From an uncultured Thermoplasmata archaeon (GTDB lineage: Archaea; Thermoplasmatota; Thermoplasmata; JAGHBH01), in contig CAZROC010000002.1 in assembly GCA_964601625.1 (NCBI GenBank), positions 80,694-144,693 on the forward strand: a DNA stretch of 64,000 nucleotides, written 5' to 3'. Positions 6,455 to 53,631 of this stretch are shown piece by piece. How positions within the stretch are numbered: position 1 is the first letter of the stretch; every line of letters begins with the position of its first letter. The notes beneath the pieces are model-generated. The model ran no database searches. It saw nothing but the letters and a program-made list of their open reading frames with translations, and was not told the origin of the DNA. Made by a program: the position numbers and the translations under genes.

Positions 6455-6620
6455 TATATTAACCGATAAGTTATATGAACAGCGACGGGGGATAAGGCAG
6501 AGGAATACGTAGTATTCCTTGAACGAATCCCTCCGGTGGCTCCTATTAACCAATAGATTCAGAGAGGAGGGTGGACAGGGAGAGTATGTTCTTTAATACG
6601 CTCACCTGTGGCGTAAATCG

Positions 6621-7259
6621 CTACTTAATGTTAATTATTCTCCCTGCGCCGCCTGGGATATATTTCTCTGGATAAAGATATTTTATCTCCGATATATATC
6701 GGGTGCAATGGGTAGGGCAGATTAACTCCAGCCCTTTTAGGGAGGAGGGGGAGTTTCCATGCAAGCCTCCTATTATACCATAGACCCTACCAAATTGGGA
6801 CGCCCTCTGCAGTATGTGCTCCATCTTTGGGTGCGAACATCCGACCATAACGACAATGCCTTTTTCCGTCTGGACACATAGAGATTGTTCTATTCCCTCA
6901 AGCTCGCCTGTAGAGTATATTCCTTCGTAAAGCATGGTAGGTTTTTTTACCTCAATAATTTCTCTCGCACCCTCTGCTTCGGAAAAATAGGAAGTAGTCC
7001 AGATTTTTACTCGGTTATTTAGACGAAGAAAAGATGAGAGACCTCCTATGTGGTCCCAGTGAAGGTGAGAGATAAAAACATCTTCAATTTCTTCTGGATT
7101 GACTTTAAGCTTTTCCATATTTGAAAGCAAAATCTTTCCATTCGCTCCAGCGTCAAAAAGAATTTTTCTTTTTTTGATTTCTACAAGTGCTGAAAATCCC
7201 CAATCGGCTTGCAAATCTCTTCTAAAAGCAGTATTATCGTAAATAATGGTAACCTTCAT
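6621..7259 (-). CDS. Metallo-beta-lactamase-fold hydrolase
   Basis: 212 aa. HxHxDH motif (HLHWDHIGG). A+T-rich. First gene downstream of the tRNA. Confidence 0.6.
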   Translation of the reverse strand: MKVTIIYDNTAFRRDLQADWGFSALVEIKKRKILFDAGANGKILLSNMEKLKVNPEEIEDVFISHLHWDHIGGLSSFLRLNNRVKIWTTSYFSEAEGAREIIEVKKPTMLYEGIYSTGELEGIEQSLCVQTEKGIVVMVGCSHPKMEHILQRASQFGRVYGIIGGLHGNSPSSLKGLELICPTHCTRYISEIKYLYPEKYIPGGAGRIINIK

Positions 7260-8020
7260 CTTAACAGCTCCTTATACAATCTTTTATCTAAGGTTCCATC
7301 AGGGAGCATCCAATCTGGGTGCACCTTGCCTTTTTCTTCCATCTGATAACGAATACAGTTTTCCCAATCTCCTTGGCAATACAATTCTATCCACCTCTTA
7401 TCCAGCTTTCCTTCCTCATAAAATCTCTTCATTGGACACACAGGATACCATTTGCAATCTTTAAGTAACACTCGCAATTTTCTATAACTTTTTATTAAAT
7501 CTTGCTTAAGTTCAGGATTGTAAAGAAGAGTTGCGGGATGAGACAAGGGCAGTATCTTTTTATCTCGCGCTAAAAACAGCTTACCAAAAACTGAAGAAAG
7601 ATCTGCTTTTGAAGGTAATGAAACACCATATTTTTGAAAAATATAACAGGTGGCATAATAACCCAAAGGAACCAATATCTTTGGATTTATCAATTTAATC
7701 TCTTCGTTCAAATAATAACTGCAGGCTTCAATTTCATCCTGTTTGGGCCTTCTATATTTGGGAAGCATGCATTTAACTAGATTTGTCATATAAATTTCAT
7801 GCCTTTTAATTCCTGCCGATTTTAGTAACTCATCTAATACTTTCCCTGAGGGACCAACAAACATTTTTCCTTCTCTATCCTCTTTTTTTCCCGGTGCCTG
7901 AGCAATCAACATAATTTTAGCATTCAAATCTCCCTCTCCACAGATAGCATTCGTTCTGGTTTCGGACAATCTGCATTTCTTACATTCCTTTATCCTTTTG
8001 TTCAATTCATCAATTTCCAT
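7256..8020 (-). CDS. Uracil-DNA glycosylase, family 4 (Fe-S type) with Cys-rich C-terminal extension
   Basis: 254 aa. GEGDLNAKIMLIAQAPGKKEDREGKMFVGPSGKVLDELL is the family-4 UDG signature region. Conserved cysteines at N-term (CKKC) and C-term. Confidence 0.7.
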   Translation of the reverse strand: MEIDELNKRIKECKKCRLSETRTNAICGEGDLNAKIMLIAQAPGKKEDREGKMFVGPSGKVLDELLKSAGIKRHEIYMTNLVKCMLPKYRRPKQDEIEACSYYLNEEIKLINPKILVPLGYYATCYIFQKYGVSLPSKADLSSVFGKLFLARDKKILPLSHPATLLYNPELKQDLIKSYRKLRVLLKDCKWYPVCPMKRFYEEGKLDKRWIELYCQGDWENCIRYQMEEKGKVHPDWMLPDGTLDKRLYKELLR

Positions 8021-8049
8021 ATTCCCTGCACCATTGAATGTTTTTCACA

Positions 8050-8180
8050 TTTTGCTTAACGTTGGGGATATGTAAAGTTCCCGGCTGTAGAGAGGGAGGA
8101 AGTTTGGGTGAAAGGTCTGCAAGACCCGTAATCGCATACATGCTCCGCCATCGCCGTAATTAACGGACAAAAGAGGTTGC
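8050..8180. repeat. degenerate attC-like cassette repeat
   Basis: Contains CTTAACGTTGGGGATATGTAAAGTT and AAGTTTGGGTGA (compare consensus ..AACGTYYTGGGGATATGTGAAGTT...AAATTTGGGCGA). Right half degenerate. Confidence 0.35.
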
Positions 8181-8211
8181 CGAGAGCATGGACAGGCGTT
8201 TCCTTTTCTTC

Positions 8212-8628
8212 TCAAGTATTCTCCTCTTTGGTAGGTGTAGGATCTTTAATAACATCAGATGGATCAAATGTCGATAGGAAAAAGTTCTTTGTAAGCTTCA
8301 TTGCACCAGATGGGCATATGTCTTGACAGAGTGCACAGAAACAGCATTTTCCCAGATCTATCTTGGGATATTTCTTTGGATACTTGTCTCTGTATTCCCC
8401 AGGCGCCTCAACCATCTCTATAGCTCTGTTTGGACATATCTTAGAGCACAGACCGCATGATATGCATTTGTCTATATTAAATCTGTGCTCGCCTCTATAC
8501 CCATCTGGTATCGGGTTTGACTCATGTGGAAATCTCGTTGTTATAGGTTTTGAAAACATATTTCTGATTATCTTTGGAATTACTTCCGTTTTCATCTTAT
8601 CACCTATCCATATCAGCTGGACAGCCAT
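8212..8628 (-). CDS. nuoI: NuoI-like 2x[4Fe-4S] ferredoxin subunit
   Basis: 138 aa. Two CxxCxxCxxxCP motifs (CISCGLCSKICP, CCFCALCQDICP). Confidence 0.65.
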   Translation of the reverse strand: MAVQLIWIGDKMKTEVIPKIIRNMFSKPITTRFPHESNPIPDGYRGEHRFNIDKCISCGLCSKICPNRAIEMVEAPGEYRDKYPKKYPKIDLGKCCFCALCQDICPSGAMKLTKNFFLSTFDPSDVIKDPTPTKEENT

Positions 8629-9721
8629 TCAAACTCCAATATATTGCTGGCACATCAGCTATCTGTACATCCCTTAATAGGAACTCCAGTACAGGTATAA
8701 GATGCAAGAAGCTGGGCCCCCTTATCTTTACTCTATAGGGCTTTGTCCCACCATCGCTGACCATATAGACTCCTGCTTCTCCCCTGGCGACTTCATTCCT
8801 AACATAAACCTCCCCCTCTGGCATCCTCATATTGAGCTTTAATTTGCTAAACCTTTTATCTATAAAATCTCCATCAGGTAAGCCTTTCAAAGCCTGATGT
8901 ATTATCTTCACTGATTGCTCCATTTCTTCTAAACATATCTGGAACCTAGCATAGGCGTCTCCTTCTTTCCTAACCGGAACCTCAAAATCAAACCTATCAT
9001 AAACCTCATAGGGCTCATCTTTTCTAACATCGGTTCTCAAACCACTTGCCCTGATAACTGGCCCGGTTGCTCCAAGCCTTATTGCGTCCTCTAATTTCAA
9101 TACACCTACGTCCCTTAACCTGCCTATGTTTGCAGGATTCTCTGCTTTTACAAAGTCTATCATCTTCTCTATTTTATCCAAAACCTTTGGTATCCTCTCC
9201 TTTGCAGAATCTGGTAGGTCTCTCCTAACGCCACCTGGACATATGTATCCAGCTGGATATACCCTTCCGCCCGTTATTAGTTCAAACAAATCTAGTATAA
9301 AATCTCTGTAACCAAATGCCAGCTTAAATCCGGTGTCAAAGCCCGTGCCAATAGATAGAACCCCATACCATATAAGATGTGATTGTATCCTGGATAGTTC
9401 CGCCATTATAACCCTAATATATTTTGCTCTCTCAGGCACCTCTACACCTATTAACTCTTCTACGGCTTCAGCATGAATAAGGTTCCAAGCCAACGCTTCA
9501 AGGACGCATATCCTATCTGAAAGAACAGCGTTCTGGATGGGCAACCTGTATTCCATTAATTTCTCGAATCCTCTATGTAAATAACCCGGGTCTGCCCTTG
9601 CAGAGACCACCCTTTCTCCATCTATTTTAAGCCTGACAGAGAAATTGCCTGAGCCTGGATGCGCAGGGCCAAAGAATAATTCATACTCGTTTTTTCCAAC
9701 AGATTCAGGTTTCATGATCAC
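8600..9721 (-). CDS. nuoD: NuoD-like 49 kDa subunit (no NiFe-binding Cys pairs seen)
   Basis: 373 aa. FGPAHPGSGNF..., RICVLEALAWNL, VYPAGYICPGGVRRDLP. C-terminus lacks the DPCxxCxxH of NiFe hydrogenase large subunits. Confidence 0.75.
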   Translation of the reverse strand: MIMKPESVGKNEYELFFGPAHPGSGNFSVRLKIDGERVVSARADPGYLHRGFEKLMEYRLPIQNAVLSDRICVLEALAWNLIHAEAVEELIGVEVPERAKYIRVIMAELSRIQSHLIWYGVLSIGTGFDTGFKLAFGYRDFILDLFELITGGRVYPAGYICPGGVRRDLPDSAKERIPKVLDKIEKMIDFVKAENPANIGRLRDVGVLKLEDAIRLGATGPVIRASGLRTDVRKDEPYEVYDRFDFEVPVRKEGDAYARFQICLEEMEQSVKIIHQALKGLPDGDFIDKRFSKLKLNMRMPEGEVYVRNEVARGEAGVYMVSDGGTKPYRVKIRGPSFLHLIPVLEFLLRDVQIADVPAIYWSLNGCPADMDR

Positions 9722-10221
9722 ACCTCTTCGAAATAAACCCTCTCTCTATCATTTTCTTTATCATAAAAGTTCTTTCTAACATACTCCCTCCAATCGAAGT
9801 CCTTCCTGAAAGGTGGTTTTTCATGCCATCCTTCCAAAAATAGGGGGGAGAGATCTGGATTACCTTTATATTCTACTCCAAATAGCTCGTGCATCTCCCT
9901 TTCATGGATCTGAGCGCTTTCACCCCATACTGGATATACCGAATCTATCTCTGGTTTATCTCCATTGATCTCTGTTTTGATGGTTATGAGTATTTTATCC
10001 TTGTATGACCATACGTGGTAGGTATGCTCATAGATTCCTCTTTTAGGCCAGTCAGTTATAGATAAGGAAGAGAGATGCTCAAAACCCAGATCCTTTATAA
10101 ACTTACATAGCTCAACGAGTTTATCTGGAGCGATTTTTACTATAACCCTCCTCTCTCTTTGCATAAATCCTTCCACACCGAACTTCTTCTTTATCTCGTC
10201 TATGATTTCTTTCTCCATCAT
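9718..10221 (-). CDS. nuoC: NuoC-like 30 kDa subunit
   Basis: 167 aa. WHEREMHELFGVEYKGNPD motif. Overlaps nuoD by 4 nt. Confidence 0.7.
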   Translation of the reverse strand: MMEKEIIDEIKKKFGVEGFMQRERRVIVKIAPDKLVELCKFIKDLGFEHLSSLSITDWPKRGIYEHTYHVWSYKDKILITIKTEINGDKPEIDSVYPVWGESAQIHEREMHELFGVEYKGNPDLSPLFLEGWHEKPPFRKDFDWREYVRKNFYDKENDRERVYFEEV

Positions 10222-10656
10222 TTATTCCATCTCCTCCACATGCTTGAATATCTTTGCACAGGCTTCAAAAACAGCCTCTGGTCTGGGTGGACAGCCAGGT
10301 ATGTACATGGTAACAGGCAGATAATCTTCCAACCTCTTTATCGTGTTATATGAATCCCAGTACATCCCACCGGTCATGGTGCACGAGCCCAAGGCAATCA
10401 CTACCCTTGGCTCAGGCATCTGTTCATATATCCTCTGGGCTCTCTTTATGGACTTAAGGGTCTGATATCCGGCTATGAACAAAACATCAGCATGCCTTGG
10501 ACTTCCAACAACTATCATTCCAAACCTTTCCATATCCCACCTTGACCCAACAACTGGAACGAGTTCGGTAAAACCACAAGAGTTAAACCAGTTGAACACC
10601 CATATTGCCTTAATGAGCTTCTTCATGGTTCTCTTTTGAGGAGATTCCTTGGCCAT
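10222..10656 (-). CDS. nuoB: NuoB-like 20 kDa subunit
   Basis: 144 aa. GSC..TGG and IPGCPPRPEA [4Fe-4S] N2-cluster motifs. Confidence 0.75.
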   Translation of the reverse strand: MAKESPQKRTMKKLIKAIWVFNWFNSCGFTELVPVVGSRWDMERFGMIVVGSPRHADVLFIAGYQTLKSIKRAQRIYEQMPEPRVVIALGSCTMTGGMYWDSYNTIKRLEDYLPVTMYIPGCPPRPEAVFEACAKIFKHVEEME

Positions 10657-10682
10657 CTTTTCACCCTCACTACCCAGTGTTT

Positions 10683-10800
10683 TGTGTGGTTATAAAGTTA
10701 ATGGAGGGCATATGGGCTGTGAGCGATAGTGAACAAGCCACATACCCGCTTGTTATATGATCTGAGCCGTAGGCGAAGACAAGCCCCTTTGTGGGGCGTG
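10683..10800. repeat. attC-like cassette repeat, variant (copy 0a)
   Basis: GTGTGGTTATAAAGTTAATGGAGGGCATATGGGCTGTGAGCGATAGTGAACAAGCCACATACCCGCTTGTTATATGA. Its GTTATATGA box is the reverse complement of the TCATATAAC box of the repeat at 12066. Confidence 0.5.
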
Positions 10801-10828
10801 GTGTTGGGATTGGTGCGACGTTTGTTTT

Positions 10829-11086
10829 TTATCTTTCGTATACGCGTTCTCTTTTGTCTATTTTTAGGATTATTATTTGGTTTTTGTCTTTGTTTATTTC
10901 ATATAGGATGCGGTATTTTCCTATGCGTATTCTGTATAGGTTTGTTTCTCCTCTTATTTTTTTGTAGGGGTATGAGTAGGGGTTTTCTTTTAGGGCGGAG
11001 AGTATCTCTTTGAGCTTGTTTTTGTAACCTGGGGGGAGGTTTGACACAAATTTTGCTGCTTTCTTTGAAAATAGTATTTCATACAT
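10829..11086 (-). CDS. RelE/ParE-family type II toxin
   Basis: 85 aa. LYRIRIGKYRILYEIN...IIIL motif. Confidence 0.7.
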   Translation of the reverse strand: MYEILFSKKAAKFVSNLPPGYKNKLKEILSALKENPYSYPYKKIRGETNLYRIRIGKYRILYEINKDKNQIIILKIDKRERVYER

Positions 11087-11283
11087 TATTCTCCCCCAAA
11101 CAATTCATCAAAACGTATGACTCCTCCCCTCTTGACATCTTCTCGTATCTCTTCCAGCTCCTTTTTCTCTTCTTCTGTCAGATCTTCGTATCCTAAAAAA
11201 TTATCTATTTTCATATTCAATTCCATGACCATACGTTCTATGTGGTTTATCTTCTCAAGCAACACATCAGCCATCAACACCAC
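11086..11283 (-). CDS. putative antitoxin partner of RelE/ParE
   Basis: 65 aa, acidic. Immediately 5' of the toxin with overlapping stop/start. Confidence 0.4.
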   Translation of the reverse strand: MVLMADVLLEKINHIERMVMELNMKIDNFLGYEDLTEEEKKELEEIREDVKRGGVIRFDELFGGE

Positions 11284-11379
11284 CTACACTACTTCTTACA
11301 ACCTTATTATATAAAAAGTTATTCTCAAACACCCCACAAAAAAGCACCAAGCCCAATATCATATAACGTCCTGGGGATA

Positions 11380-11500
11380 TGTGATGTGCCCTCCATTGCG
11401 TCTAATAATTGATTGTGTGGTTATAAAGTTAATGGAGGGCATATGGGCTGTGAGCGATAGCGAACAAGCCACATACCCGCTTGTTATACGACCCGAACTG
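11380..11500. repeat. attC-like cassette repeat, variant (copy 0b)
   Basis: Near-identical to 10683..10765. Preceded by inverted CCCTCCATT...AATGGAGGG. Confidence 0.5.
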
Positions 11501-11547
11501 TGTGAGGGCCTGCCACTTTTTGTGGCTGGCGTTGAGTGGGGGTTGCG

Positions 11548-11790
11548 TTATTTTTTTCCTTTTTTGAGTATTTTTTTGAATTCTTCTACTGTTAGTTCTG
11601 CGTCTTTTAGGATGCTTTTTAGTAGTTTGGGGTGTAGTATTTTGCCGGAGTGGTAGGGCACGGTTATTCTTACACCTTTGTCGTTTTTGTATATTTTGTG
11701 GCTGCCGCTTTGTCTTACTAGTTGGAATCCTACCTTTTCTAAGACTTTTATGACTTCTCTTGCGGTTACCCGGGGGAGTTTGTCGCTCAT
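11548..11790 (-). CDS. hicA: HicA-family toxin
   Basis: 80 aa. GSHKIYKN...VPYHSGKILHPKLLKSILKDA (YcfA/HicA motif). Confidence 0.7.
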   Translation of the reverse strand: MSDKLPRVTAREVIKVLEKVGFQLVRQSGSHKIYKNDKGVRITVPYHSGKILHPKLLKSILKDAELTVEEFKKILKKGKK

Positions 11791-12029
11791 ATGGCCACTT
11801 CCACGGCTGTGAGGTTGATTATTTCAACCTTTGGTATTTCTTCTCCCTCTTCCAATCGGTCAAGGATATGTAGCCGTATAGCATCTTTGATATTTTCCAA
11901 GACCTCTTCATAGGTGTCCCCCTGAGTATAGCATCCCTGCAGCTCTGGGCAATAAGCAAAATATCCATCTTCGTCTTTTTCAATAACAACCGAAACCCTG
12001 TACACCTGCATTTCATTCACCTCGCACAC
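11787..12029 (-). CDS. hicB: HicB-family antitoxin (UPF0150)
   Basis: 80 aa. EKDEDGYFAYCPELQGCYTQGDTYEEVLENIKDAI. Confidence 0.7.
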   Translation of the reverse strand: MCEVNEMQVYRVSVVIEKDEDGYFAYCPELQGCYTQGDTYEEVLENIKDAIRLHILDRLEEGEEIPKVEIINLTAVEVAI

Positions 12030-12065
12030 CTACACAATATTTATCCCAGAACGACTTAATAAACC

Positions 12066-12228
12066 TTCCGCAACCCCCGCTCAATGTCATATAACGTCCA
12101 GCGGGTATGTGAAGTTTGCGGAGCGTGAGCGGAGCAAATTTGGGCGAGCGTAAGCGAGCCACATATCCGCCTGTTGTCCGAACCCGTAAGGGGTGGAGCG
12201 GGAGCGGAGAGTTGCGGGCGACGGGTTC
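12066..12228. repeat. attC-like cassette repeat (copy 1)
   Basis: TCATATAACGTCCAGCGGGTATGTGAAGTTTGCGGAGCGTGAGCGGAGCAAATTTGGGCGAGCG...GCCACATATCCGCCTGTTGTCCGAAC...GGAGAGTTGCGGGCGACGG. Confidence 0.7.
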
Positions 12229-12231
12229 ATC

Positions 12232-12462
12232 TCATAGATATTTAGAGAACTTGTCGATATCAACCTTTGCAAGCTTTAATATTCCCCTTAAAGTACCAAT
12301 TTTCAATTCTTTATGCATTGGAACTACTGTACCAACTTTTCCTTCTGGTGTGATTTTTGATAATCTAACATGACTTCCCTTTCTTCCAGTTATTTGAAAG
12401 CCAAATTTATTACACAAGATTTTAACAACTTCTTCTCCAGAAACATTTCTAAGCTTTGGCAA
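12232..12462 (-). CDS. hicA: HicA-family toxin
   Basis: 76 aa. GSHVRLSKITPEGKVGTVVPMHKELKIGTLRGILK. Confidence 0.65.
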   Translation of the reverse strand: MPKLRNVSGEEVVKILCNKFGFQITGRKGSHVRLSKITPEGKVGTVVPMHKELKIGTLRGILKLAKVDIDKFSKYL

Positions 12463-12679
12463 CTTTTTTTGCCTCCATTTCTATTGATATTTCGAAAGTT
12501 GTAAAAAGAGGATGCTCTTTTTCTTCAAGCGGAAATTCCTCAAGATATAATTCTGTGGCTTCTTTTAGATTCTGAATCGCTTCTTCTATTGTTTTACCTT
12601 GGCTTACAGTTCCAACCTCAGGGCATTCTGCAACATACATATCTTCTTCTTTATGAATTATTGCTGTTAATATCACCAT
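12449..12679 (-). CDS. hicB: HicB-family antitoxin
   Basis: 76 aa. EEDMYVAECPEVGTVSQGKTIEEAIQNLKEA. Confidence 0.65.
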   Translation of the reverse strand: MVILTAIIHKEEDMYVAECPEVGTVSQGKTIEEAIQNLKEATELYLEEFPLEEKEHPLFTTFEISIEMEAKKVAKA

Positions 12680-12736
12680 TTTTCAATCACCTCATTGATA
12701 CAATACCTCTCCTGCATATTTTAATATTTTCCCAAG

Positions 12737-12880
12737 CCCGTCGCCCGCAATTTCGGACAACGTCCAGCGGGTATCTGAAGCCATAAGCCGGTAGGCGAAG
12801 GGTTTAGGCGGAGCATAGCGAAGCCAGATACCCGCTTGTTGTCCGAGTGCGATAGCACCGAAGCGAGGCGGAGAGTTGCC
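12737..12880. repeat. attC-like cassette repeat (copy 2)
   Basis: CCGTCGCCCGCAATTTCGGACAACGTCCAGCGGGTATCTGAAG...GCCAGATACCCGCTTGTTGTCCGAGTGCGATAGCACCGAAGCGAGGCGGAGAGTTGC. Confidence 0.7.
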
Positions 12881-12889
12881 TGCTTGGTA

Positions 12890-13282
12890 TTATACGTGCC
12901 ATATACTTTTCTTATTTTTTCCGTCAAAACAAATTACATAGTTATCTAAAATGTTTTCTCGGCCTATTATGTTTATTCCTGTTCCTAGTCTGTCGGAAAA
13001 GCCTATTATTGCGTTGGTTTTTAGATGTTCAATAATCAACTCCAGTTTAAAGATGTACAGTGGGATTATTCCCCCGTCACCAACAGTGATGTCTTTTCTT
13101 TCTCCGGAATATATGTCTAAGCCCAGTTCTTCTGCAAAATCGGCATGGAAGACGGAATATGTGGCACCAGTATCAAGATAGGCTAGGGTTCTAACTGTCT
13201 TGTCTTGGTTTATTATTTGTACTTCAACTAATGGGCAGTAACGGCCTCTCCATGGGATATAAGGTATTTCTATCTTGTTCAT
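12890..13282 (-). CDS. retropepsin-like (clan AA) aspartic protease
   Basis: 130 aa. AYLDTGATYSVF (D-T/S-G-A active-site motif). Confidence 0.55.
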   Translation of the reverse strand: MNKIEIPYIPWRGRYCPLVEVQIINQDKTVRTLAYLDTGATYSVFHADFAEELGLDIYSGERKDITVGDGGIIPLYIFKLELIIEHLKTNAIIGFSDRLGTGINIIGRENILDNYVICFDGKNKKSIWHV

Positions 13283-13545
13283 ATTAAAAGAGCCTCCTCT
13301 CCCCTCCTTGGTATATATGCTATCAATGGGTCCTTGACTCCCATTTTTTTGACCTTCTCATACACTTCGTGTATTGTTTTTCCTATAGCAACGATTTTAT
13401 TTTTGTATAAGGCAACATATTTTCCTCCCTGTTCCTCTTCCAGTTTCTCTTTATTCGCTATCAGATAAAGCATCTCATCGCTGACCATTTTGACCACCTT
13501 TATTATTGCATATACTCCTCCATAGCTTATATGATTTACTATCAA
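13279..13545 (-). CDS. small protein partner of the retropepsin-like protease (hypothetical)
   Basis: 88 aa. Overlaps protease gene by 4 nt. Two-gene cassette reminiscent of TA-like pairs. Confidence 0.35.
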   Translation of the reverse strand: MIVNHISYGGVYAIIKVVKMVSDEMLYLIANKEKLEEEQGGKYVALYKNKIVAIGKTIHEVYEKVKKMGVKDPLIAYIPRRGEEALLI

Positions 13546-13559
13546 ATTACCGGGCAGGC

Positions 13560-14530: not shown

Positions 14531-14537
14531 TTATTCT

Positions 14538-14690: not shown

Positions 14691-14703
14691 CATTTTAATC
14701 ACT

Positions 14704-18411: not shown

Positions 18412-18451
18412 AATACTATTCTCCCCATATTAGATTTATTAATTTCGTTAG

Positions 18452-44660: not shown

Positions 44661-44687
44661 ATTCTATATCACCAATCCCAATTATAT

Positions 44688-44865: not shown

Positions 44866-44883
44866 CGTTTAAAGATGAGTATA

Positions 44884-45816: not shown

Positions 45817-45819
45817 ATA

Positions 45820-47658: not shown

Positions 47659-47667
47659 CTCAATTTT

Positions 47668-49689
47668 TCATGGTACAAATAATTTACTCGTTCTGGGAAA
47701 AGCTACGACTCTTGATACGTCACCAAAGCCTAACAATTTAGTTATAAATCTTTCAATGCCCAAAGCAAAACCTCCATGTTGTGGCACATTTTTATCTTTA
47801 TAAATATCCAAATACAACTTATACCTCTTAGGAGGTAGACCCGATTTTATTAAATTTTTTTCTAATGTTTCGTAATCGCATTCTCTCAAACTACCAGATG
47901 CCACTATCCAGTCACTCATTATAAAATAGAAACGAGTAGATGTTTTTTCATCTATGTTTTTGACATAGAATCTTCTAAAATCGACAGGTAAATTTGTTAC
48001 AAAATACAGTGATGTATCAAACTCGTTTATTATGTGTTTTGTTATGATAGGAAGATATTTCCTAAATGACCTATCATCGTTTACCTGTACACCATTTTTG
48101 CCAAAATATTCTACCAAGTCAGAAAATGTTATTTTCATGATCTTATCAGAATAAAGTGCTTTATATAATCCAAAATCTCTTAAATATACATATTCATTCT
48201 CCCAAAGCTTTTCTCTGCATGAGATTATCATGTTTTTTAATAAGTTAATAATGTTATCAGTATTATTTGTAGTTAGTTCGCAGTCCACGGCCCACGCTTC
48301 ACACAACGAGTCCTTGCGGTGATGAGTTAATTTTCTCCAAAATGGTGCAATCTCATATATTTTCTCAAATCCATTTACAATCAAAAGAGATTTGTAATAT
48401 TGTGCTGATGCTCGTAGGAAACTCTTCTTACCATAGTAATCAACTTCAAACTGTGCTACTTTTTTTGTTGTGGTTATATCTACCGGGATCACAGTTATTA
48501 ATGGCGTGAATATCTCAATAAAGCCCTCCGAAGTAAGAAATTGTTTCATATAATTAATAGCAGAAGATTTAATTATAAATATTGGTTTTTTAACGATGAA
48601 TATACTTCTATCCGATAAATGTTCCTTTATAGTGTAATCTATTAACCTTTTTTGTAAATACAATTTAAAGTTCTCACACTCCCTCCCGATAATAGAATTA
48701 ACCTTTATAAGTTCCTTTTTACGCATTTCGATCGTTTTATCTGCAAATCTTCTGATATCATCAATATGGTAAATCCGTATCTTTTTGATTTTCTCTATTT
48801 CCAAATCGATCACTGGTGGAACACTTATGTCAAAAATTTTTACATCTTTTTTAAGCAGATTTGTGTCGTTGATGGTGATAAGATGTTTGGGAGAGTCAGT
48901 AGTAGCGATTATTATATCATACTCTTTGAGATTTTGCTTTAGGTATGAGTAGCTATATACAACATATCTTAGATCTTTTATTTTTTTGGCTTTCTCTGGA
49001 TTTTTAGTGTATACAAACACTTTCTTAAAACCATTCTCGTGGAGTGCCTTACATATCAATTGTCCTGAACTTCCTGCTCCTAATACAGCAATGTTGCTAT
49101 CAATATGAACATTCTCCTTAAGAAGGTGTGCTACTATGTTTCGTTCTATACTTGTGTATCCGCGATGGAAGCTGGTTTTATTATTTATTTCATCATCAAC
49201 AATTTTTGCATATTCAAAAAGGGTTTGTAAAAAAACACCTGTACAACCACTTTCCCTTGCGATTTGAAATGCCTTTAAAACTTGACCTCTTACTTGTGAA
49301 TCACCTAATATGACACTCTTTACACCGCATATGGTCTCAAACAAGTGTCTAACACCATGCATCTGGCTGTATTTCTCAAGTTTTGTTTTATAAATATCCT
49401 CATGGAACTTTTTTGAAAACTTCTTCCATACTTTGTATATAACTTCATCCACCATCCTCGGATCAGTAGTTACCACATAGAACTCTATAGAATTGCACTT
49501 TTGAATTATTACACATTCTTTAATTATTGAAATATTTTTTAACTCACAAAGAGCAGGTCTTACATCTTTTATTTTCTTATTACTATCCCACAAAGACATA
49601 TCCCCAATAATCTGTTGAAAATTTCTTTCTGCACCACCAACTCGTCTAACTTCTAAATGATTATTTTTTAAAAAATCCTCAACGAGCAT
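47668..49689 (-). CDS. Fusion protein: N-terminal glutamyl-tRNA reductase (HemA)-like domains + C-terminal class II aaRS catalytic core
   Basis: 673 aa. CVIIQKCNSIEFYVV (compare VLSTCNRTEIY), HLFETICGVKSVILGDSQVRGQV (compare [23 protein letters not shown]), NAD(P) site VLGAGSSGQLICKAL. C-term FWRKLTHHRKDSLCEAWAVDCE (motif 2) and QHGGFALGIERF...VVAFPR (motif 3). Confidence 0.55.
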   Translation of the reverse strand: MLVEDFLKNNHLEVRRVGGAERNFQQIIGDMSLWDSNKKIKDVRPALCELKNISIIKECVIIQKCNSIEFYVVTTDPRMVDEVIYKVWKKFSKKFHEDIYKTKLEKYSQMHGVRHLFETICGVKSVILGDSQVRGQVLKAFQIARESGCTGVFLQTLFEYAKIVDDEINNKTSFHRGYTSIERNIVAHLLKENVHIDSNIAVLGAGSSGQLICKALHENGFKKVFVYTKNPEKAKKIKDLRYVVYSYSYLKQNLKEYDIIIATTDSPKHLITINDTNLLKKDVKIFDISVPPVIDLEIEKIKKIRIYHIDDIRRFADKTIEMRKKELIKVNSIIGRECENFKLYLQKRLIDYTIKEHLSDRSIFIVKKPIFIIKSSAINYMKQFLTSEGFIEIFTPLITVIPVDITTTKKVAQFEVDYYGKKSFLRASAQYYKSLLIVNGFEKIYEIAPFWRKLTHHRKDSLCEAWAVDCELTTNNTDNIINLLKNMIISCREKLWENEYVYLRDFGLYKALYSDKIMKITFSDLVEYFGKNGVQVNDDRSFRKYLPIITKHIINEFDTSLYFVTNLPVDFRRFYVKNIDEKTSTRFYFIMSDWIVASGSLRECDYETLEKNLIKSGLPPKRYKLYLDIYKDKNVPQHGGFALGIERFITKLLGFGDVSRVVAFPRTSKLFVP

Positions 49690-49690
49690 C

Positions 49691-50860
49691 TTAGATCACC
49701 TCGCTCCATTTTTTATAAATATTCTTTATTTGTGACTTTGAAATTGGCCATGGATTGTTAATAAGTAGTCTTTCTCTTTTTAAACAAGATGCAACCATTC
49801 TATCCAAATTTAATCTATTTCTTAATTTGATAAGATAATTCCTATATCCTGTAAAGTTCATACATCTATTAATTACTTCAATACATCTTATTAGAATATC
49901 TTCATCTATGTGGTCTACAAAATCCCCATAATATTCTTCCAACACAAATTTTAAAAATAGGGATACCGCTATACTGTGTGGTATTTCGTACAGGTCTTGC
50001 AATGGATAGGACAAAGCATGAATTAAACCAACGCCAGCATGTTTGTCAGCTATACCAGCATAAAAAGTTCCTATCATCAATTTCTCTCTATTGTTAATTT
50101 TATTAGGGTTAGTAATAGATTGTAAGAGATTTGATGAAATAAGGTTTATAGAATAAGATGAAAAAGTCTTAGTCATGTATGTTTTCTTTTTAGAAATATG
50201 TGCCTCAATTGCATGGGATAACGCATCAAGTCCTGTGGATGCAATAATCGATTGAGGCAACGTAAGGGTCCAAAGAGGATCCAAAAGCACAATATCGGGA
50301 AGCAAAAGAGGATCTATTAATGCAACTTTTTCTCCGCTGTTATTTTTTACTATAGATATGTCTGTTGCTTCACTACCACTTCCAGTTGTTGGTAATACAA
50401 ATAACGTAGTCTTTGAAATTTCTGTTATAACCTTTTTAGTATCTATAATATTTGATAAAGTTTGAAGCGGGCTTACGGTTCTGTTGATTACGGATACTAT
50501 CTTTGCCAAGTCAATTGTACTTCCACCACCAATTGCAATGATAGCATCCGCTTTGTTTTTATGACAGACATTGTGCATCATTTTTCCTATAGTACCTATA
50601 GTTGGTTCACCACTTGGTTTTTTGTATATATCATATGAAATAGTATTTTCATCTAAAATCTTCAGTAGTTCTTTCATTATATCCATATTTTCTATAGATA
50701 ACGAAATAATAATTAATATTTTATCACAATTTTTATTCTTCAATTCATTAATAATTGCTTTGTAACACCCTTCTCCATAATAGGTCTTTGGAATTTCTAT
50801 ACTGTTTATTTCTTTTTGTTTAGTTCTTCCAGCACATCCATTAGATGGCATAGTATTCAC
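49691..50860 (-). CDS. Iron-containing alcohol dehydrogenase / 3-dehydroquinate synthase-like oxidoreductase
   Basis: 389 aa. GGGSTIDLAK glycine-rich NAD motif. His-rich metal-site region. Confidence 0.55.
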   Translation of the reverse strand: MNTMPSNGCAGRTKQKEINSIEIPKTYYGEGCYKAIINELKNKNCDKILIIISLSIENMDIMKELLKILDENTISYDIYKKPSGEPTIGTIGKMMHNVCHKNKADAIIAIGGGSTIDLAKIVSVINRTVSPLQTLSNIIDTKKVITEISKTTLFVLPTTGSGSEATDISIVKNNSGEKVALIDPLLLPDIVLLDPLWTLTLPQSIIASTGLDALSHAIEAHISKKKTYMTKTFSSYSINLISSNLLQSITNPNKINNREKLMIGTFYAGIADKHAGVGLIHALSYPLQDLYEIPHSIAVSLFLKFVLEEYYGDFVDHIDEDILIRCIEVINRCMNFTGYRNYLIKLRNRLNLDRMVASCLKRERLLINNPWPISKSQIKNIYKKWSEVI

Positions 50861-50887
50861 CCCAAATTGTTATTGTTTTAGTATGCC

Positions 50888-51045
50888 TTTCGCCCGCAAT
50901 TGAATATAACGTCCAGCGGGTATCTGAAGTCCTGAGCGACAGCGAAGGATTTGGGCGAAGTGCCGGAGGCACGTAGCCAGATACCCGCTTGTTGTGCGAA
51001 CCCGATAGGGCTGATGCCGAAGGCGGAAGGTCGTGAGCAAAGGGC
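50888..51045. repeat. attC-like cassette repeat (copy 14)
   Basis: TTCGCCCGCAATTGAATATAACGTCCAGCGGGTATCTGAAG...GCCAGATACCCGCTTGTTGTGCGAACCC...GTCGTGAGCAAAGGG. Confidence 0.7.
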
Positions 51046-51058
51046 AAACTGGCATTAA

Positions 51059-52348
51059 TCATTTCATACCACCTTTTTTCTTCATTTTTTCTTTCCATGT
51101 TATAAATTCAAATAATGCGTCAATTTCAAGATAAATGGGCAGTTTTGGACATTGCTGTCCAACAGTTCTTAAATATGTTCGCTTTACAATTTCCATATCT
51201 TTAACGAAGGCATCGTATTTCGCAGGTGAATAGGGAGATGCTAAATCCTTAAAAATTTCTTTTAATCCTTTTTTAGCCTTCCCATTTAAATGCGGGTACT
51301 TATCACCATGTGCAAGCATTAATAATTGTGTTGCTAATCCCCATGGATGCTTATCCTTTCCCCCAATAAGTATTTTATTACAAAATCTTTCAATTCTATC
51401 AGTTACAGGTTTTTTCCCATATAATAGCTCTTTCAGCTCTTTATTTAATTTTTTCTCTCCATTTTTATTTATGATCTCTTTCTCCACAAAAATATCTGGG
51501 TTCTTTCGGCTATACCCTCCTTCTGTTCTTATTATATTATCCAAATCAAATAAAGGATATTTTCCTCCAAATAGTTCTATAAGTTCTCTTTTACTAAGCG
51601 TCCTACCTCTTTTTATTTTGTCAATTAATTTTTTCTTACTATTATAAAATCGTAATCTTGCATCACATTCGTTTGGTACTGCCCAAGGTCCGCGTTTTGT
51701 TTTCCACCATGTTGACAAATCACTTTTATGTTCATTCAAGCATTGTCCTACTAAAATGATCTTTTTGCTGCCAATGTCTGACATTTTAATCTTGTATATT
51801 TCCTTTTTCACGTTCTCTTTAGTTTTTTTAATGTGTCTATAATCCTTTTTGTATTGTTTTACTAAATCATCATTCAACCTCACTCCATTGCTGAAAATTT
51901 TATCAAAATTTACAAGAACATCTCTTATTTCTGGATCAGAGGCTTTTCCACTAATTAAAACATTATATTCAAAATTATCTGAAAAACCTCCTTTACTTAC
52001 ATTTGACGATCCTATTATTACGGTAACATCATCACTCTTCTTAAATATGTACGTTTTTATATGGAATGTCTTTCCACTTACGGGAAAATTATATAATCTA
52101 CACTCCCATGAGGCTCCTGCCTTTATTTCATTGAGAATGTCCTCTAATACTGCCTGTTCAGTATTATAAAAATCACACCCGATAGCAAATTGCACATTCT
52201 TTTTTAGTAATACACCTTTAAGTTTGTCATACATTTGTTTCTTGACAAAAAATACTGCTATTTTGACATCGTTTGCTTTGTTTATTTCCCATCTTATTAT
52301 ATGTTCCAAATCCTCTTCAGGAACAAGTATTGTCCTAATATTAGCCAT
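51059..52348 (-). CDS. PLD-family (HKD) nuclease-like protein with C-terminal unknown domain
   Basis: 429 aa. Single HKD motif FHIKTYIFKKSDDVTVIIGSSNVSKGG. Confidence 0.55.
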   Translation of the reverse strand: MANIRTILVPEEDLEHIIRWEINKANDVKIAVFFVKKQMYDKLKGVLLKKNVQFAIGCDFYNTEQAVLEDILNEIKAGASWECRLYNFPVSGKTFHIKTYIFKKSDDVTVIIGSSNVSKGGFSDNFEYNVLISGKASDPEIRDVLVNFDKIFSNGVRLNDDLVKQYKKDYRHIKKTKENVKKEIYKIKMSDIGSKKIILVGQCLNEHKSDLSTWWKTKRGPWAVPNECDARLRFYNSKKKLIDKIKRGRTLSKRELIELFGGKYPLFDLDNIIRTEGGYSRKNPDIFVEKEIINKNGEKKLNKELKELLYGKKPVTDRIERFCNKILIGGKDKHPWGLATQLLMLAHGDKYPHLNGKAKKGLKEIFKDLASPYSPAKYDAFVKDMEIVKRTYLRTVGQQCPKLPIYLEIDALFEFITWKEKMKKKGGMK

Positions 52349-52506
52349 GTTTAAACACCTCCTGCATCAATATTCTTTTCCCCTTCTTAAGCCCTTTGCT
52401 CACGATTTCGCACAACTCCCCCATCTCCGCATTATTACATATATTTTGCTTTGCGGGTGGTGTATGTGTATTGCGGATATTTTTCTTTCTGGTGGTGTTT
52501 TGTGTG
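52349..52506. other. attI-like junction: half cassette-repeat adjacent to the integrase stop codon
   Basis: GCCCTTTGCTCACGATTTCGCACAACTCCCCC carries the left (AAC-side) box TTCGCACAAC, the exact reverse complement of the GTTGTGCGAA box of repeat copy 14. No right half follows. Confidence 0.45.
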
Positions 52507-53631
52507 TTATTTCGCATATTCATACCTCTCTATGTTGTGTTGATTTTGGGTCTCGGGATTGTTGTTATCACCGGCTGTCTCTCCTGTTTCGTTTGCCGTG
52601 GCAGTTATCGTATCCAGCGGGCTTTTTATTCTGGTGAGTGTGCGGGTTGTTACGTGGGTGTAGATTTCGGTGGTTTTGGTGCTTTTGTGGCCGAGGAGTT
52701 TTTGTATGTATCTTATGTCTATTCCGTTTTCAAGGAGGTGGGTGGCGAAGCTGTGTCTGAGGGAGTGGACTGTTGCTGGTTTTTGTATGCCTGCTTTTTT
52801 GAGGGCTGTTTTGAATATGGCCTGTGCTGTTCTGGCTGAGATGTGTCTGGTTGGGTTGGCTCCGGGGAAGAGCCATTTTTGGGGGTTGTAAGTTTGCTGG
52901 TATTCTTTCAGTGTTTTGATAGCGGTTTCGGCGAGTATGGTGTATCTGTCTTTTCTTCCTTTTCCGCCTTTTATGTGTATGACTTTCTGGTCTGTGTCTA
53001 TGTCTTCGTTTTTCAGGGATACCGCTTCGCTGACCCTGAGTCCCGAGGAGTATATCAGCATAAGCAGGGTTTTGTGTTTGAGGTTTGTTGTGGCTGACAG
53101 GAGCTTTTGTATTTCGGCTGGTGAGAGTACGACGGGTAGTTTTCGCTCTTTTCTGGGCCGTTTGATGTCGTATGTAAATTTTCTGTTGAGCATCTGGCCG
53201 TAGTAGAATTTGATGGCGCTTATGGCGGTGTTTATTGTTGTGGCCGATACTCCTTTTTCTGCGAGGTCTGAGAGGTAGTTTTTTATGTCTGTGGCGTTTA
53301 TCTGGTTGGGGTTTTTTGATGTGTGTTTGAGGAGTTGTTTGTTGTAGCGCATGTAGGCGGCGGCTGTTCTCGGGCTATATTTTCTGGCTGCGAGTTCTTC
53401 TTTCAATGGGTGGAGCCAGATGTCTGGGTTTGCTTTGATTTTTTCTCCTTTGAAGAGTTTGAGGAACGTGGATATTTGCTGGCTTGGGACTGTCCAGTGT
53501 TTTTTGTGTGGATGCCATCTGTGGCCGGGTATGGTCTTTATTTTTTCTATGTACTCCGGGTTATATGGAAACCTGACGATAATCTCCTCCCCTCCGCCTG
53601 TCCCTGTCTTTACGGTTATCTCCCCTCTCAT
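52507..53631 (-). CDS. Tyrosine recombinase / integrase (candidate integron-type integrase)
   Basis: Start chosen at ATG 53631 (MRGEITVKTG...). C-terminal catalytic domain with R (GLRVSE), H-x-x-R (HSLRHSFATH) and Y (TTEIYTHV). Track ORF extends upstream to 54741 as low-complexity read-through. Confidence 0.7.
   Translation of the reverse strand: MRGEITVKTGTGGGEEIIVRFPYNPEYIEKIKTIPGHRWHPHKKHWTVPSQQISTFLKLFKGEKIKANPDIWLHPLKEELAARKYSPRTAAAYMRYNKQLLKHTSKNPNQINATDIKNYLSDLAEKGVSATTINTAISAIKFYYGQMLNRKFTYDIKRPRKERKLPVVLSPAEIQKLLSATTNLKHKTLLMLIYSSGLRVSEAVSLKNEDIDTDQKVIHIKGGKGRKDRYTILAETAIKTLKEYQQTYNPQKWLFPGANPTRHISARTAQAIFKTALKKAGIQKPATVHSLRHSFATHLLENGIDIRYIQKLLGHKSTKTTEIYTHVTTRTLTRIKSPLDTITATANETGETAGDNNNPETQNQHNIERYEYAK

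Follow-up and report, generated by a model that had tools for sequence, protein, structure and literature searches.

Integrons are defined by the integrase IntI, whose special insertion reads the extrahelical bases of folded attC sites, and integron searches, including those which found integrons in archaea, require both this insertion and the canonical attC model. Six archaeal IntI proteins with the additional domain were described by Ghaly et al. (2022, Sci Adv, PMC9668308), together with attC sites of 58-90 nt (Data S9) that were detected using HattCI and an attC covariance model. Most of the arrays in that study were clusters of attC sites lacking an integrase (CALINs), Thermoplasmatota were among the phyla represented and a sharing of cassettes across domains was argued. 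Smyshlyaev et al. (2021) described the insertion as 'not fully conserved' in an integron-like subgroup, and no more. The present analysis concerns a 64,000-nt stretch of DNA from an uncultured Thermoplasmata archaeon (i.e. the window; GenBank GCA_964601625.1, contig CAZROC010000002.1, 80,694-144,693 forward; 1-based window positions are used throughout), in which an A+T-rich block (~6.46-53.7 kb) lies between a tRNA-Thr gene and a tyrosine recombinase gene, with archaeal housekeeping genes on either side. The block is probably (an estimate of roughly 80%) a chromosomal integron-like cassette platform, made up of the recombinase, an attI-like site and cassettes that end in folded sites. A search of the literature on archaeal and Xer-like integrons, with subscription-only papers outside its coverage, found no description of this combination of recombinase and site.

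The platform occupies ~46 kb and consists of sixteen intact cassettes and two decayed blocks that follow the attI-like site. Every credible gene in the block (44 in total, 1-9 per cassette) is on the minus strand, as is the recombinase gene, and cassette 1 starts 91 nt past the recombinase stop codon. A first-pass annotation of the DNA had proposed this organisation, with nearly all genes on the minus strand in multi-gene units, an array beginning directly after the stop codon of a co-directional recombinase, and 17 copies of a 140-180 bp imperfect palindrome bounding the units; each of these observations held. A covariance model of the inner part of the palindromic site (i.e. R1), built on 14 window copies, retrieved 17 sites from the window, 17/17 being on the minus strand. 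The three matches beyond the training copies were at 11356-11487 (53 bits), 10692-10766 (truncated, 25 bits) and 8049-8154 (decayed, 22 bits), such that the block contains 15 complete copies, one truncated copy and one decayed copy of a structured site of ~160 nt. Sites reconstituted by joining cassette ends in silico measured 158-203 nt. A strict IUPAC site pattern matched the window 8 times and 100 shuffles 0 times, and an Rfam gathering scan of the window returned the tRNA alone, the repeats matching no known RNA family.

In gene direction (5' to 3'), each site consists of a long arm, a centre, and an R' box (GTT) with a short arm. The long arm comprises one half of an outer stem, a side hairpin and an R'' box ending in AAC (e.g. 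CCCGTCGCCCGCAACTCTCCGC, small hairpin, TCGGACAAC). The centre comprises an L'' box, two small hairpins and an L' box (i.e. AGGAGGATATGTGGCT, hairpin, CGCCCAAATT, hairpin, AACTTCACATATCCCCAGAAC), and an example of the short arm is GTTGTCCGAAATTGCGGGCGACGG. The AAC was invariant in 16 copies and the GTT in 15 copies plus the attI junction, while the R boxes were diverse within the array (GTTGTCC, GTTAGGC, GTTATAC and GTTAAGT). Sites 15 and 16 (11356-11497 and 10692-10766), the two most distal, have a variant centre in common that is 93% identical over 89 nt. A ~40-nt insertion in this centre folds into a separate stem (GCCCTCCAT...ATGGAGGGC), and the more distal of the two copies ends after CCACACAA.

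Folding was compared for sites in array context and for the circular junctions of single cassettes. Reconstituted sites folded at -26 to -49 kcal/mol as compared to -20 to -41 kcal/mol in array context, and the bottom strand was the more stable in 15/15 sites, by ~5 kcal/mol. Three stems make up the reconstituted hairpin, namely the outer stem (12-15 bp), the R stem (9-10 bp) and, past an asymmetric internal loop, the L stem (9-11 bp). The last of these is perfectly helical with zero bulged (i.e. extrahelical) bases, asymmetry being confined to the internal loop (~4 versus 7 nt) and the side hairpin. RNAalifold predicted the L stem and hairpin from the window copies, with compensatory changes in 10/15 pairs. 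Further sites were collected by scanning metagenomes for the DNA pattern alone, which identified at least 118 contigs, and R1 located 138 sites in 80 short loci analysed from these. In the alignment of the 138 sites, 94.5% of cells were paired as compared to 74.5% after shuffling and 16-56% with a slid partner, and 437 double-sided changes were present as compared to 136 in shuffles, the observed value being reached by 0/500 shuffles. This alignment was fitted to R1, a procedure that favours structure, and its result agrees with both the slid controls and the separate prediction by RNAalifold. The sites are conserved by structure and their stems covary.

The first ~25 nt of each cassette (GTT...) can pair with the ~60 nt at its own end (...AAC) and not with the arm of the adjoining site. 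Scored over 23 positions, mean complementarity was 20.3 for cognate start-end pairs, 14.9 for the two arms of one site and 14.6 for all non-cognate pairs. The cognate partner ranked first in 12/16 rows and the summed cognate score of 325 (permutation mean 238.8, sd 10.3) was reached in 0/100,000 permutations. Cassette 1, which starts GGGGGA/GTTGTGCG (the slash marking the junction), is perfectly complementary to its own end (23/23), with the start GTTGTGCGAAATCGTGAGCAAAGGGC pairing with GCCCTTTGCTCACG...TCGCACAAC. The same boundaries were apparent in homologous cassettes on unrelated contigs, the loci being labelled L followed by a number (L001, L004, L016, L083/L084 and L086 being loci from genomes or metagenome-assembled genomes (MAGs), and L106, L137, L144, L180 and others being metagenome loci). 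Homology of the methyltransferase cassette 10 with L106 (86% identity) begins exactly at the GTT (20652). For the terminal cassette, encoding a uracil-DNA glycosylase (UDG) and a metallo-beta-lactamase (MBL)-fold protein, homology with L144 (82% identity over 1432 bp) also begins at the GTT (~8060), and the cassette likewise lies behind a site in that locus. The HicAB cassette 8 and L180 (80% identity) share a GTT start and an R'' box. A role of the repeats as terminators or repetitive extragenic palindromic (REP) elements was considered and rejected, since the complementarity of the arms is specific to each cassette and homology breaks at GTT. The complementarity of cognate arms and the GTT breakpoints of homology also back the gene-cassette array of the first-pass annotation, in which each cassette is ended by a palindrome; the mobile unit would be the cassette (i.e. 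its open reading frames (ORFs) plus site), with the bases after G/TT belonging to the next cassette.

The attI-like site lies between the recombinase stop codon and the GTT (52416) of cassette 1. Its architecture recurred in 9 loci from different phyla, 75-190 nt past the recombinase stop codon, as two to three ~12-nt boxes of ATATCCG type followed by ..GATATGAAnGA/GTTRT. The attI is positioned downstream of the recombinase gene and not upstream and divergent. An A/T-rich TATA-like box (AAAATATATGTAATAA) was spotted by eye ~20 nt upstream of the attI junction, and expression of the cassettes would proceed from an attI-proximal promoter. In integrons, promoterless cassettes are driven by the Pc promoter of the platform.

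Homologues of the recombinase with ~55% identity were numerous, with >8000 candidates being scored. Homologues with 42-58% identity (38% for L016) were followed by a co-directional attI in L001, L004, L005, L016, L083, L085, L086 and L137, and by co-directional sites in L001, L004, L016, L083/L084, L086 and L137. In the cultured bacterium Desulfurobacterium atlanticum (L083), the lone TaqI restriction-modification (R-M) cassette also starts at attI/GTT and has complementary ends. Site 3 of the window matches the D. atlanticum site at 89/101 positions, the 12 differences falling mostly in the R boxes, and so near-identical a centre in a Thermoplasmatota archaeon and in Desulfurobacterium points to exchange between archaea and bacteria. 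In the metagenome loci, sites were on one strand only in 39/39 multi-site loci, the cognate arm score was 16.2 as compared to 13.3 for random pairs (p=6e-13), and ORFs of at least 100 aa were mainly co-directional with the sites (218 versus 49 opposed). The recombinase gene, whole or in fragments, was also present in seven of the 80 loci; in the five clear cases (L137, L090, L141, L111 and L114), the sites follow it in the same direction. Judged by sequence, the same recombinase, attI and site occur in archaea and bacteria. A search of genome contigs with the recombinase alignment was dominated by generic motifs (LRHSFATHL and KTTEIYTH), and its taxonomic spread is little informative for the family; the matches listed were mainly of 33-48% identity, most being without the N-terminal domain or sites.

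Some related loci had additional arrangements. A site of the same family is also found directly upstream of the recombinase in L001 (9872-9962) and L137 (3715-3815), with the R' GTT ~25-40 nt before the start codon, and a duplicated 3' fragment of the recombinase is present in L001 (8709-8781). The arrays may flank the gene on both sides in these two loci, or the gene itself may have been moved. Downstream of a 36% homologue in a Bacteroidota MAG (L024), a 119-nt exact direct repeat (13146-13264 and 15381-15499) occurs with its copies 2235 nt apart; the second copy is at the contig end and the sequence is unrelated to the site family.

The recombinase contains an N-terminal beta-beta-alpha-beta-beta-alpha domain (aa 1-70), a SAM_4-type core-binding domain, a catalytic domain with residues R199/K224/H289/R292/H315/Y324 and a C-terminal SPLD. 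Pfam matches were to Phage_int_SAM_4 and Phage_integrase, with a weak match to HARP at residues 19-54. The best sequence match in the PDB was VchIntIA (i.e. IntI4, 2a3v; E=7e-43, in two pieces) and that of Thermoplasma acidophilum XerA was slightly weaker (E=1.7e-41). The IntI-specific insertion is absent on the evidence of these alignments, because 18 aa of the query (244-261) stand opposite 60 aa of IntI4 (180-239) while XerA (4a8e) aligned as one gapless stretch. An alignment of 23 family members (the recombinase and 22 relatives) likewise had no long insert in this region. In the same alignment, the catalytic set is complete, the IntI-like ..SPLD at the C-terminus is invariant and the N-terminal domain is conserved as FPYNP..I.KIK.I.G.RW....K.W..P. 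The first-pass annotation had named the lack of this insertion as an argument against an integron, an argument that thus applies in part.

Domains of the UvsW/XPB-DRD/HARP type bind branched or distorted DNA. The N-terminal 70-aa domain of the recombinase has a fold resembling theirs and is absent from IntI4 (2a3v) and XerA (4a8e and 5hxy); by analogy, it might recognise the branched, folded site and so replace the IntI insertion in this task. A profile of this domain matched 4294 cluster representatives of a protein library at E<=1e-3, mostly fragments and multi-copy proteins, many with 2-4 tandem copies in 240-790 aa and of lengths unlike the recombinase. The domain is a widespread module with other partners, and the count of 4294 is no measure of the size of the recombinase family.

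In the proposed mechanism, the recombinase would be the catalyst and folded single-stranded DNA its substrate. The enzyme is predicted to be a sister of IntI and XerA without the insertion that reads extrahelical bases, and its N-terminal domain would read the branched site in the insertion's stead. Strand exchange would occur at the invariant G/TT of R', which would make the GTT box and short arm part of the next cassette. An excised circular cassette would join its own two ends into the long imperfect hairpin with the outer, R and L stems described above. Cassettes would enter by recombination of a site with attI and exit by recombination between sites, as in integrons.

Several observations weigh against this scheme. 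The L180 homologue of cassette 8 differs in its type of centre while retaining both the arms and the R'' box, and centre pairs with at least 90% identity share an identical R'' 7-mer in just 19% of cases. Homologous loci also break at AAC, besides GTT. Centres are thus weakly linked to the upstream cassette, and a single crossover at R' predicts neither the 19% figure nor the centre swap of L180; the canonical model, with the centre always moving with the upstream cassette, fits neither of them. Owing to the diversity of the R boxes, pairing between R'' and R' of the same site in array context is often poor past AAC and GTT, and recognition of a folded strand inside the array would depend mainly on the L stem. 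Half of the cassettes have 3-9 genes or are 4-9 kb long, which is atypical for integron cassettes. Among distant homologues that match the N-terminal region (Bacteroidota and Gemmatimonadota, 37-42% identity), site repeats were not found in L014, L019 and L027 and no attI was found in L007 and L008. The loose linkage of the centres and the weak R stems suggest that AAC serves as a second crossover point, that either strand can be used, or that the reaction is Xer-like and takes place on both sides of an extruded centre.

The main mechanistic rival retains the same platform and recombinase and invokes Xer-like chemistry on double-stranded DNA (or use of either folded strand). Monomers would bind duplex R'' (..AAC) and R' (GTT..), which would be brought together by extrusion of the centre, and strand exchanges would occur on either side of it; centres and cassettes would then reassort independently, somewhat as pdif modules or integrative mobile elements exploiting Xer (IMEX) do at dif. 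The breaks of homology at both AAC and GTT and the weak linkage of centres to either flank favour this chemistry, as do the gapless alignment with XerA and an L stem without extrahelical bases to set strand polarity. The recombinase also passes the curated equivalog cutoff of NCBIfam NF040815 (recomb_XerA_Arch; 239.2 bits versus 220), a model whose product name is 'site-specific tyrosine recombinase/integron integrase', and a minimal dif-like xxxAAC-N6-GTTxxx repeat is present at the distal end beside the tRNA. However, the L stem and hairpins covary strongly through compensatory changes, which favours a folded nucleic acid, the bottom strand folds consistently better, and the ~80 nt between the binding boxes would be unprecedented in Xer core sites. 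XerA itself is a two-domain protein of ~280-300 aa acting on a single 28-bp dif, and the platform has a 374-aa enzyme with 17 structured sites and an attI. The likeness of the N-terminal domain to binders of branched DNA fits a cruciform equally well and hence does not decide the matter. Overall, a Xer-like reaction is considered unlikely, though it is a serious competitor for the mechanism.

The cassette platform also has to be weighed against a canonical integron (IntI, attI and attC) of the kind published for archaeal MAGs, which is very improbable here. The R boxes are of canonical type (GCCTAAC/GTTAGGC and GTATAAC/GTTATAC) and resemble those of published archaeal attCs, the attI is downstream of the integrase gene as in published archaeal integrons, and IntI likeness extends to the best PDB match, the SAM_4-type core-binding domain and the C-terminal SPLD. 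Other features of integrons are also present, namely an attI beside the integrase gene with insertion at G/TT, R''/L''/L'/R' boxes between AAC and GTT, and conservation of structure over sequence. In contrast, neither the recombinase nor its 22 relatives have the IntI additional domain around patch III, and the recombinase fell below the cutoffs of TIGR02249 (230 versus 265) and PRK15417 (176 versus 435), matching each in two split stretches. The extra N-terminal domain is foreign to IntI4, and the ~160-nt sites have an outer stem and a side hairpin. The sites lack the extrahelical bases that, with an unpaired central spacer, confer bottom-strand selectivity on attC, though the bottom strand was the more stable in all 15. 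The L boxes and the CCCAAATT motif are missing from the attC set of Ghaly et al. The integron of the first-pass annotation therefore stands as regards the cassette array, attI, AAC/GTT boxes and structural conservation, and not as a classical integron, the IntI insertion and extrahelical bases being lacking and the sites longer.

Base composition and the distal end bear on whether the block entered as one piece. Windowed GC was 0.50-0.575 outside the block as compared to 0.30-0.42 inside (~7 to 52.4 kb). The left edge was graded, from 0.55 (6300-6499) through 0.42-0.50 (6500-6900) to 0.33-0.39 from 7000. On the right, the cassettes (0.27-0.40) stop at ~52.4 kb, the sharp drop being at attI; the recombinase gene was intermediate (0.44-0.48) and host GC (>=0.54) returned from 53.7 kb. 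The switches of composition reported at first pass, at the tRNA 3' end and just beyond the recombinase gene, were real but less abrupt than described. The intermediate GC of the recombinase gene and the drop at attI fit a resident platform that gathered foreign cassettes.

At the distal end, a dif-like xxxAAC-N6-GTTxxx inverted repeat (~6457-6484; TTATATTAAC-CGATAA-GTTATATGAA) sits between the tRNA 3' end and a decayed duplicate of that end, which, with a following TATTAAC motif (TATATTAACCGATAAG), lies at ~6520-6560, ~95 nt downstream (GAACGAATCCCTCCGGTGGCTCC TATTAACCAATAGA). The inverted repeat may be what is left of an att site, or the target at which the array was founded. Beyond the decayed duplicate, no copy of the tRNA 3' end (>=12 nt) was found in the window and none near the recombinase (52-54 kb). 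Just upstream of tRNA-Thr, three ~50-nt copies of an element (6086-6134, 6247-6295 and 6315-6370) begin with TGCCGCCGTAG, which equals 11-15 nt of the tRNA-Thr 5' end; each forms an imperfect hairpin and the Logan contig L205 ends in this zone. They may be left over from integration events targeted at the tRNA, or may constitute a local repeat. In related loci, a tRNA-Asn(GUU) gene lies ~285 nt upstream of the D. atlanticum recombinase (L083 9642-9717) and just upstream of the L001 array (6889-6964). In L106 (~1900-1984), a cassette GTT follows ~85 nt after a stretch resembling a tRNA 3' end (seen by eye) with no site centre between; ARAGORN was negative and the contig ends there.

A single genomic island, integrated at tRNA-Thr by its own integrase and containing palindromes that are unrelated REP-like or miniature inverted-repeat transposable element (MITE)-like repeats or terminators, has little to recommend it and is even less probable than a canonical integron. 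The A+T-rich block does adjoin a tRNA gene and does have a tyrosine recombinase at its opposite end, the decayed duplicate lies close to the tRNA, and related platforms are near tRNA-Asn. Such islands are flanked on both sides by direct repeats of the tRNA 3' end and have their integrase next to the tRNA, however, whereas here no such repeat is found near the recombinase, which is at the tRNA-distal end and of intermediate GC. The repeat arms are complementary in a cassette-specific manner, other arrays contain single homologous cassettes, with homology breaking at GTT, and sites co-occur with the recombinase across phyla, always in one orientation. The single 47-kb insertion at the tRNA that was first proposed was accordingly abandoned.

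The least probable explanation, a chimera of assembly or binning that joined low-GC foreign DNA to an archaeal contig, draws on the large GC contrast (0.35 versus 0.53), the metagenomic source and the breaking of Logan contigs near the array, and founders on the recovery of both junctions at 100% identity in Logan assemblies of two separate SRA runs (SRR7051160 and SRR35108318, matching 7807-6403 and 7426-6408 at the tRNA/cassette junction, and 53068-57531 and 53558-57531, reaching Thi4 and Pelota, at the recombinase/Thi4 junction) and on the joint record of flank and cassette proteins on a 158,173-nt contig and on a 107,939-nt JGI contig. The block is genuine and no assembly artefact, which answers the concern about a mis-join raised by the first-pass annotation. 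That annotation had also identified the host as an archaeon, in agreement with the flanking genes (i.e. FEN-1, PGK, Thi4, Pelota and Trm5/TYW2); the nearest named relatives of FEN-1 were in Thermoplasmatota (66% identity), with Aciduliprofundum at 60%.

The features of the platform and of related loci are listed in Table 1. Cargo of the type expected in integrons, predicted at first pass as toxin-antitoxin (TA) pairs, a methyltransferase, nucleases, helicases and biosynthetic operons, was recovered with Pfam and PADLOC as three HicAB pairs, ParE, a type II DNA methyltransferase, a phospholipase D (PLD)-family nuclease, helicases, and sugar and radical-SAM operons. The identifiable cargo is largely anti-phage defence (Tiamat, PDC-S68, R-M and HerA systems), with TA pairs in addition. 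The Tiamat TmtA-like gene of cassette 3 (39964-44660) is split into ORFs of 1200 aa (PADLOC 635 bits, profile positions 5-895) and 367 aa (156 bits, profile positions 1031-1302), and is thus a pseudogene disrupted by a frameshift or a version that naturally consists of two genes. The operon of cassette 2 (44884-50860) is unusual for an archaeon as a four-gene set with a full bacterial-type aspartyl-tRNA synthetase, and suggests aminoacyl-tRNA-dependent chemistry of bacterial origin. In the terminal cassette, the MBL-fold protein (6621-7259) had a precomputed Pfam match to Anti-Pycsar_Apyc1, an anti-defence family that degrades cyclic nucleotides, and lies beside the UDG, of which copies with at least 90% identity were present on five further contigs. 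The four-gene Nuo-like block is bounded by the truncated site 16 and the decayed site 17. Its genes (8212-10656; GC ~0.42) form the hydrophilic module of a group-4 hydrogenase or complex-I-like enzyme, the membrane subunits being absent from the block.

Table 1. Features of the window and related platforms (R1, covariance model score; arm score, start-end complementarity of a cassette out of 23; aaRS, aminoacyl-tRNA synthetase; ADH, alcohol dehydrogenase; DH, dehydrogenase; REase, restriction endonuclease)
Feature	Position or genome	Strand	Content	Support
tRNA-Thr(CGU)	6382-6454	+	host gene bordering the distal array end	ARAGORN; Rfam RF00005, 70.5 bits
Distal boundary zone	6455-6560	.		read directly from sequence
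Terminal cassette	6486-8062	-	family-4-type UDG (7256-8020); MBL-fold Apyc1-like protein (6621-7259)	Pfam
Site 17, decayed	8049-8154	-	3' half kept (CACCCAAA..GAACTTTACATATCCCCAAC/GTTAAGC), 5' half degenerate	R1 22 bits, E=0.003
Four-gene block	8155-10691	-	NuoB-like (10222-10656), NuoC-like (9718-10221), NuoD/[NiFe] large-subunit-like (8600-9721), 2x[4Fe-4S] ferredoxin (8212-8628)	Pfam
Site 16, truncated	10692-10812	-	long arm, R'' (CATATAAC) and 5' part of centre kept; L' and R' deleted	R1 25 bits
Cassette 16	10752-11367	-	ParE toxin; 65-aa ORF	arm score 20
Site 15	11341-11543	-	AAC 11485, GTT 11367; ~40-nt centre insertion	R1 53 bits, outside training set
Cassette 15	11483-12095	-	HicB; HicA	Pfam; arm score 21, rank 1
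Site 14	12069-12233	-	AAC 12175, GTT 12095	R1 87 bits
Cassette 14	12173-12761	-	HicB; HicA	Pfam; arm score 23
Site 13	12735-12898	-	AAC 12840, GTT 12761	R1 92.7 bits
Cassette 13	12838-13572	-	DUF5678 protein; aspartyl-protease-like protein	Pfam; arm score 17, rank 1
Site 12	13546-13716	-	AAC 13658, GTT 13572	R1 95.6 bits
Cassette 12	13656-14559	-	269-aa protein	no family match in Pfam, PADLOC
Site 11	14533-14697	-	AAC 14639, GTT 14559	R1 91.2 bits
Cassette 11	14637-18476	-	1235-aa UvrD/RecD-like helicase, candidate defence gene PDC-S68	Pfam; PADLOC 1022 bits
Site 10	18450-18608	-	AAC 18550, GTT 18476	R1 90.3 bits
Cassette 10	18548-20652	-	type II N6/N4 DNA methyltransferase; 415-aa protein without assignment	Pfam, PADLOC
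Site 9	20626-20799	-	AAC 20741, GTT 20652	R1 86.4 bits
Cassette 9	20739-22122	-	three small ORFs, one a double zinc ribbon	Pfam
Site 8	22096-22266	-	AAC 22208, GTT 22122	R1 95.3 bits
Cassette 8	22206-22827	-	HicB; HicA	Pfam
Site 7	22801-22965	-	AAC 22907, GTT 22827	R1 67.7 bits
Cassette 7	22905-28123	-	615-aa protein without assignment; HerA-like ATPase; DpdA-like/DUF6884 protein	Pfam, PADLOC
Site 6	28097-28255	-	AAC 28197, GTT 28123	R1 89.5 bits
Cassette 6	28195-28998	-	163-aa protein without assignment	arm score 23
Site 5	28972-29133	-	AAC 29075, GTT 28998	R1 88.9 bits
Cassette 5	29073-30482	-	radical SAM protein	Pfam; arm score 22
Site 4	30456-30613	-	AAC 30555, GTT 30482	R1 92.1 bits
Cassette 4	30553-39852	-	nine genes: UDP-glucose dehydrogenase fragment, NTP transferase, epimerase/dehydratase, GT4 glycosyltransferase, radical SAM/SPASM, one without assignment, O-methyltransferase, Tyr phosphatase, P-loop kinase	Pfam; arm score 21
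Site 3	39826-39987	-	AAC 39929, GTT 39852	R1 94.5 bits
Cassette 3	39927-44727	-	Tiamat TmtA-like defence gene in two ORFs	
Site 2	44701-44862	-	AAC 44804, GTT 44727	R1 89.6 bits
Cassette 2	44802-50910	-	Fe-ADH; GluTR_N/shikimate-DH/class-II aaRS fusion; bacterial-type AspRS with GAD domain; stand-alone aaRS-II catalytic-domain paralogue	Pfam; arm score 23
Site 1	50884-51051	-	AAC 50993, GTT 50910	R1 97.3 bits
Cassette 1	50991-52416	-	PLD-family nuclease, NgoFVII/type IV REase-like	Pfam, PADLOC
attI-like site	52416-52506	-	ATATCCGCAAT...AATAATGCGGAGATGGGGGA/GTT; between recombinase stop and cassette 1	
Tyrosine recombinase	52507-53631	-	374 aa; co-directional with cassettes, adjoins host Thi4	
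L001	MAG GCA_002441125.1		after recombinase: R-M cassettes with sites between	
L083/L084	Desulfurobacterium atlanticum, cultured bacterium		after recombinase: one TaqI R-M cassette and a site	92.5 bits
L086	GCA_053530635.1		after recombinase: three sites	
L004	Spirochaetota MAG		after recombinase: one site	
L016	Bacteroidia MAG		after recombinase: one site	

The platform combines the full logic of cassettes (attI, G/TT crossover, sites conserved by structure and self-complementary ends) with a different recombinase and a different site architecture. If the recombinase runs the array, integron-type gene capture would be broader, and probably older, than the IntI clade, and such platforms may be under-counted by current tools, especially in archaea and uncultured lineages. 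The system would then also be a natural experiment in the recognition of folded DNA by a tyrosine recombinase without the IntI insertion, and the one-cassette version in the cultured D. atlanticum makes it experimentally tractable. The defence-rich cargo and the near-identical site centres across domains make the platform a candidate vehicle for cross-domain traffic in defence genes. A more far-reaching synthesis, held tentatively and at slightly less than even odds, is that these loci represent an ancient and distinct integron class of Archaea and Bacteria. Its integrase would never have had, or would have lost, the IntI insertion and would read branched folded sites by a DRD/HARP-type N-terminal domain, with sites crossing at AAC and GTT and with centres and cassettes shuffling separately. 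Such enzymes could be the 'missing' recombinase of integrase-less arrays in archaea and candidate phyla, and a possible route for defence genes between archaea and bacteria.

Classical integrons, above all the sedentary chromosomal ones (e.g. the Vibrio super-integron with its Vibrio cholerae repeats, VCRs), likewise consist of a recombinase gene and attI followed by a one-directional cassette array. Their sites are also imperfect palindromes with R'', L'', L' and R' boxes and a G/TT crossover, such that the two ends of a cassette pair with each other; conservation is stronger in structure than in sequence, sites within an array are alike, and the cargo includes TA, R-M, defence and unassigned genes. 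In the present platform, by contrast, the recombinase has a DRD/HARP-like N-terminal domain and no IntI insertion, and attI is downstream of a co-directional gene, an orientation also seen in the 'reverse' integrons of Spirochaetes and in archaeal integrons. The ~160-nt sites have a side hairpin and an additional outer stem (12-15 bp), the 5' part that the cassette contributes to a site is ~25 nt and not 6, the L stem is without extrahelical bases, centres apparently reassort apart from the cassettes, and many cassettes are multigene, of up to 9.3 kb. The archaeal integrons of Ghaly et al. (2022, PMC9668308) share the archaeal host, an attI immediately downstream of the integrase gene, enrichment for TA and R-M genes and the R-box types, but differ in the L boxes, which here are of ATAT type around a CCCAAATT centre; a search of the supplementary sequences of that study for the CCCAAATT site motif found no occurrence.

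XerA/dif systems, IMEX elements and the pdif modules of Acinetobacter resemble the platform in a XerA_Arch-level score, XerA-like catalytic spacing, inverted binding boxes and the distal dif-like repeat. XerA, however, has no DRD/HARP-like N-terminal domain and acts on one 28-bp dif in the resolution of chromosome dimers, whereas 17 sites of ~160 nt with folded centres and an attI with repeated boxes are present here, together with an IntI-like SAM_4 domain and SPLD. Tycheposons and other tRNA-targeting islands with tyrosine recombinases likewise form a cargo-rich variable region beside a tRNA, and related platforms adjoin tRNA-Asn; their repeats are partial tRNA copies and each unit has an integrase, whereas in the present platform the repeats are not derived from tRNA and one recombinase serves many cassettes.

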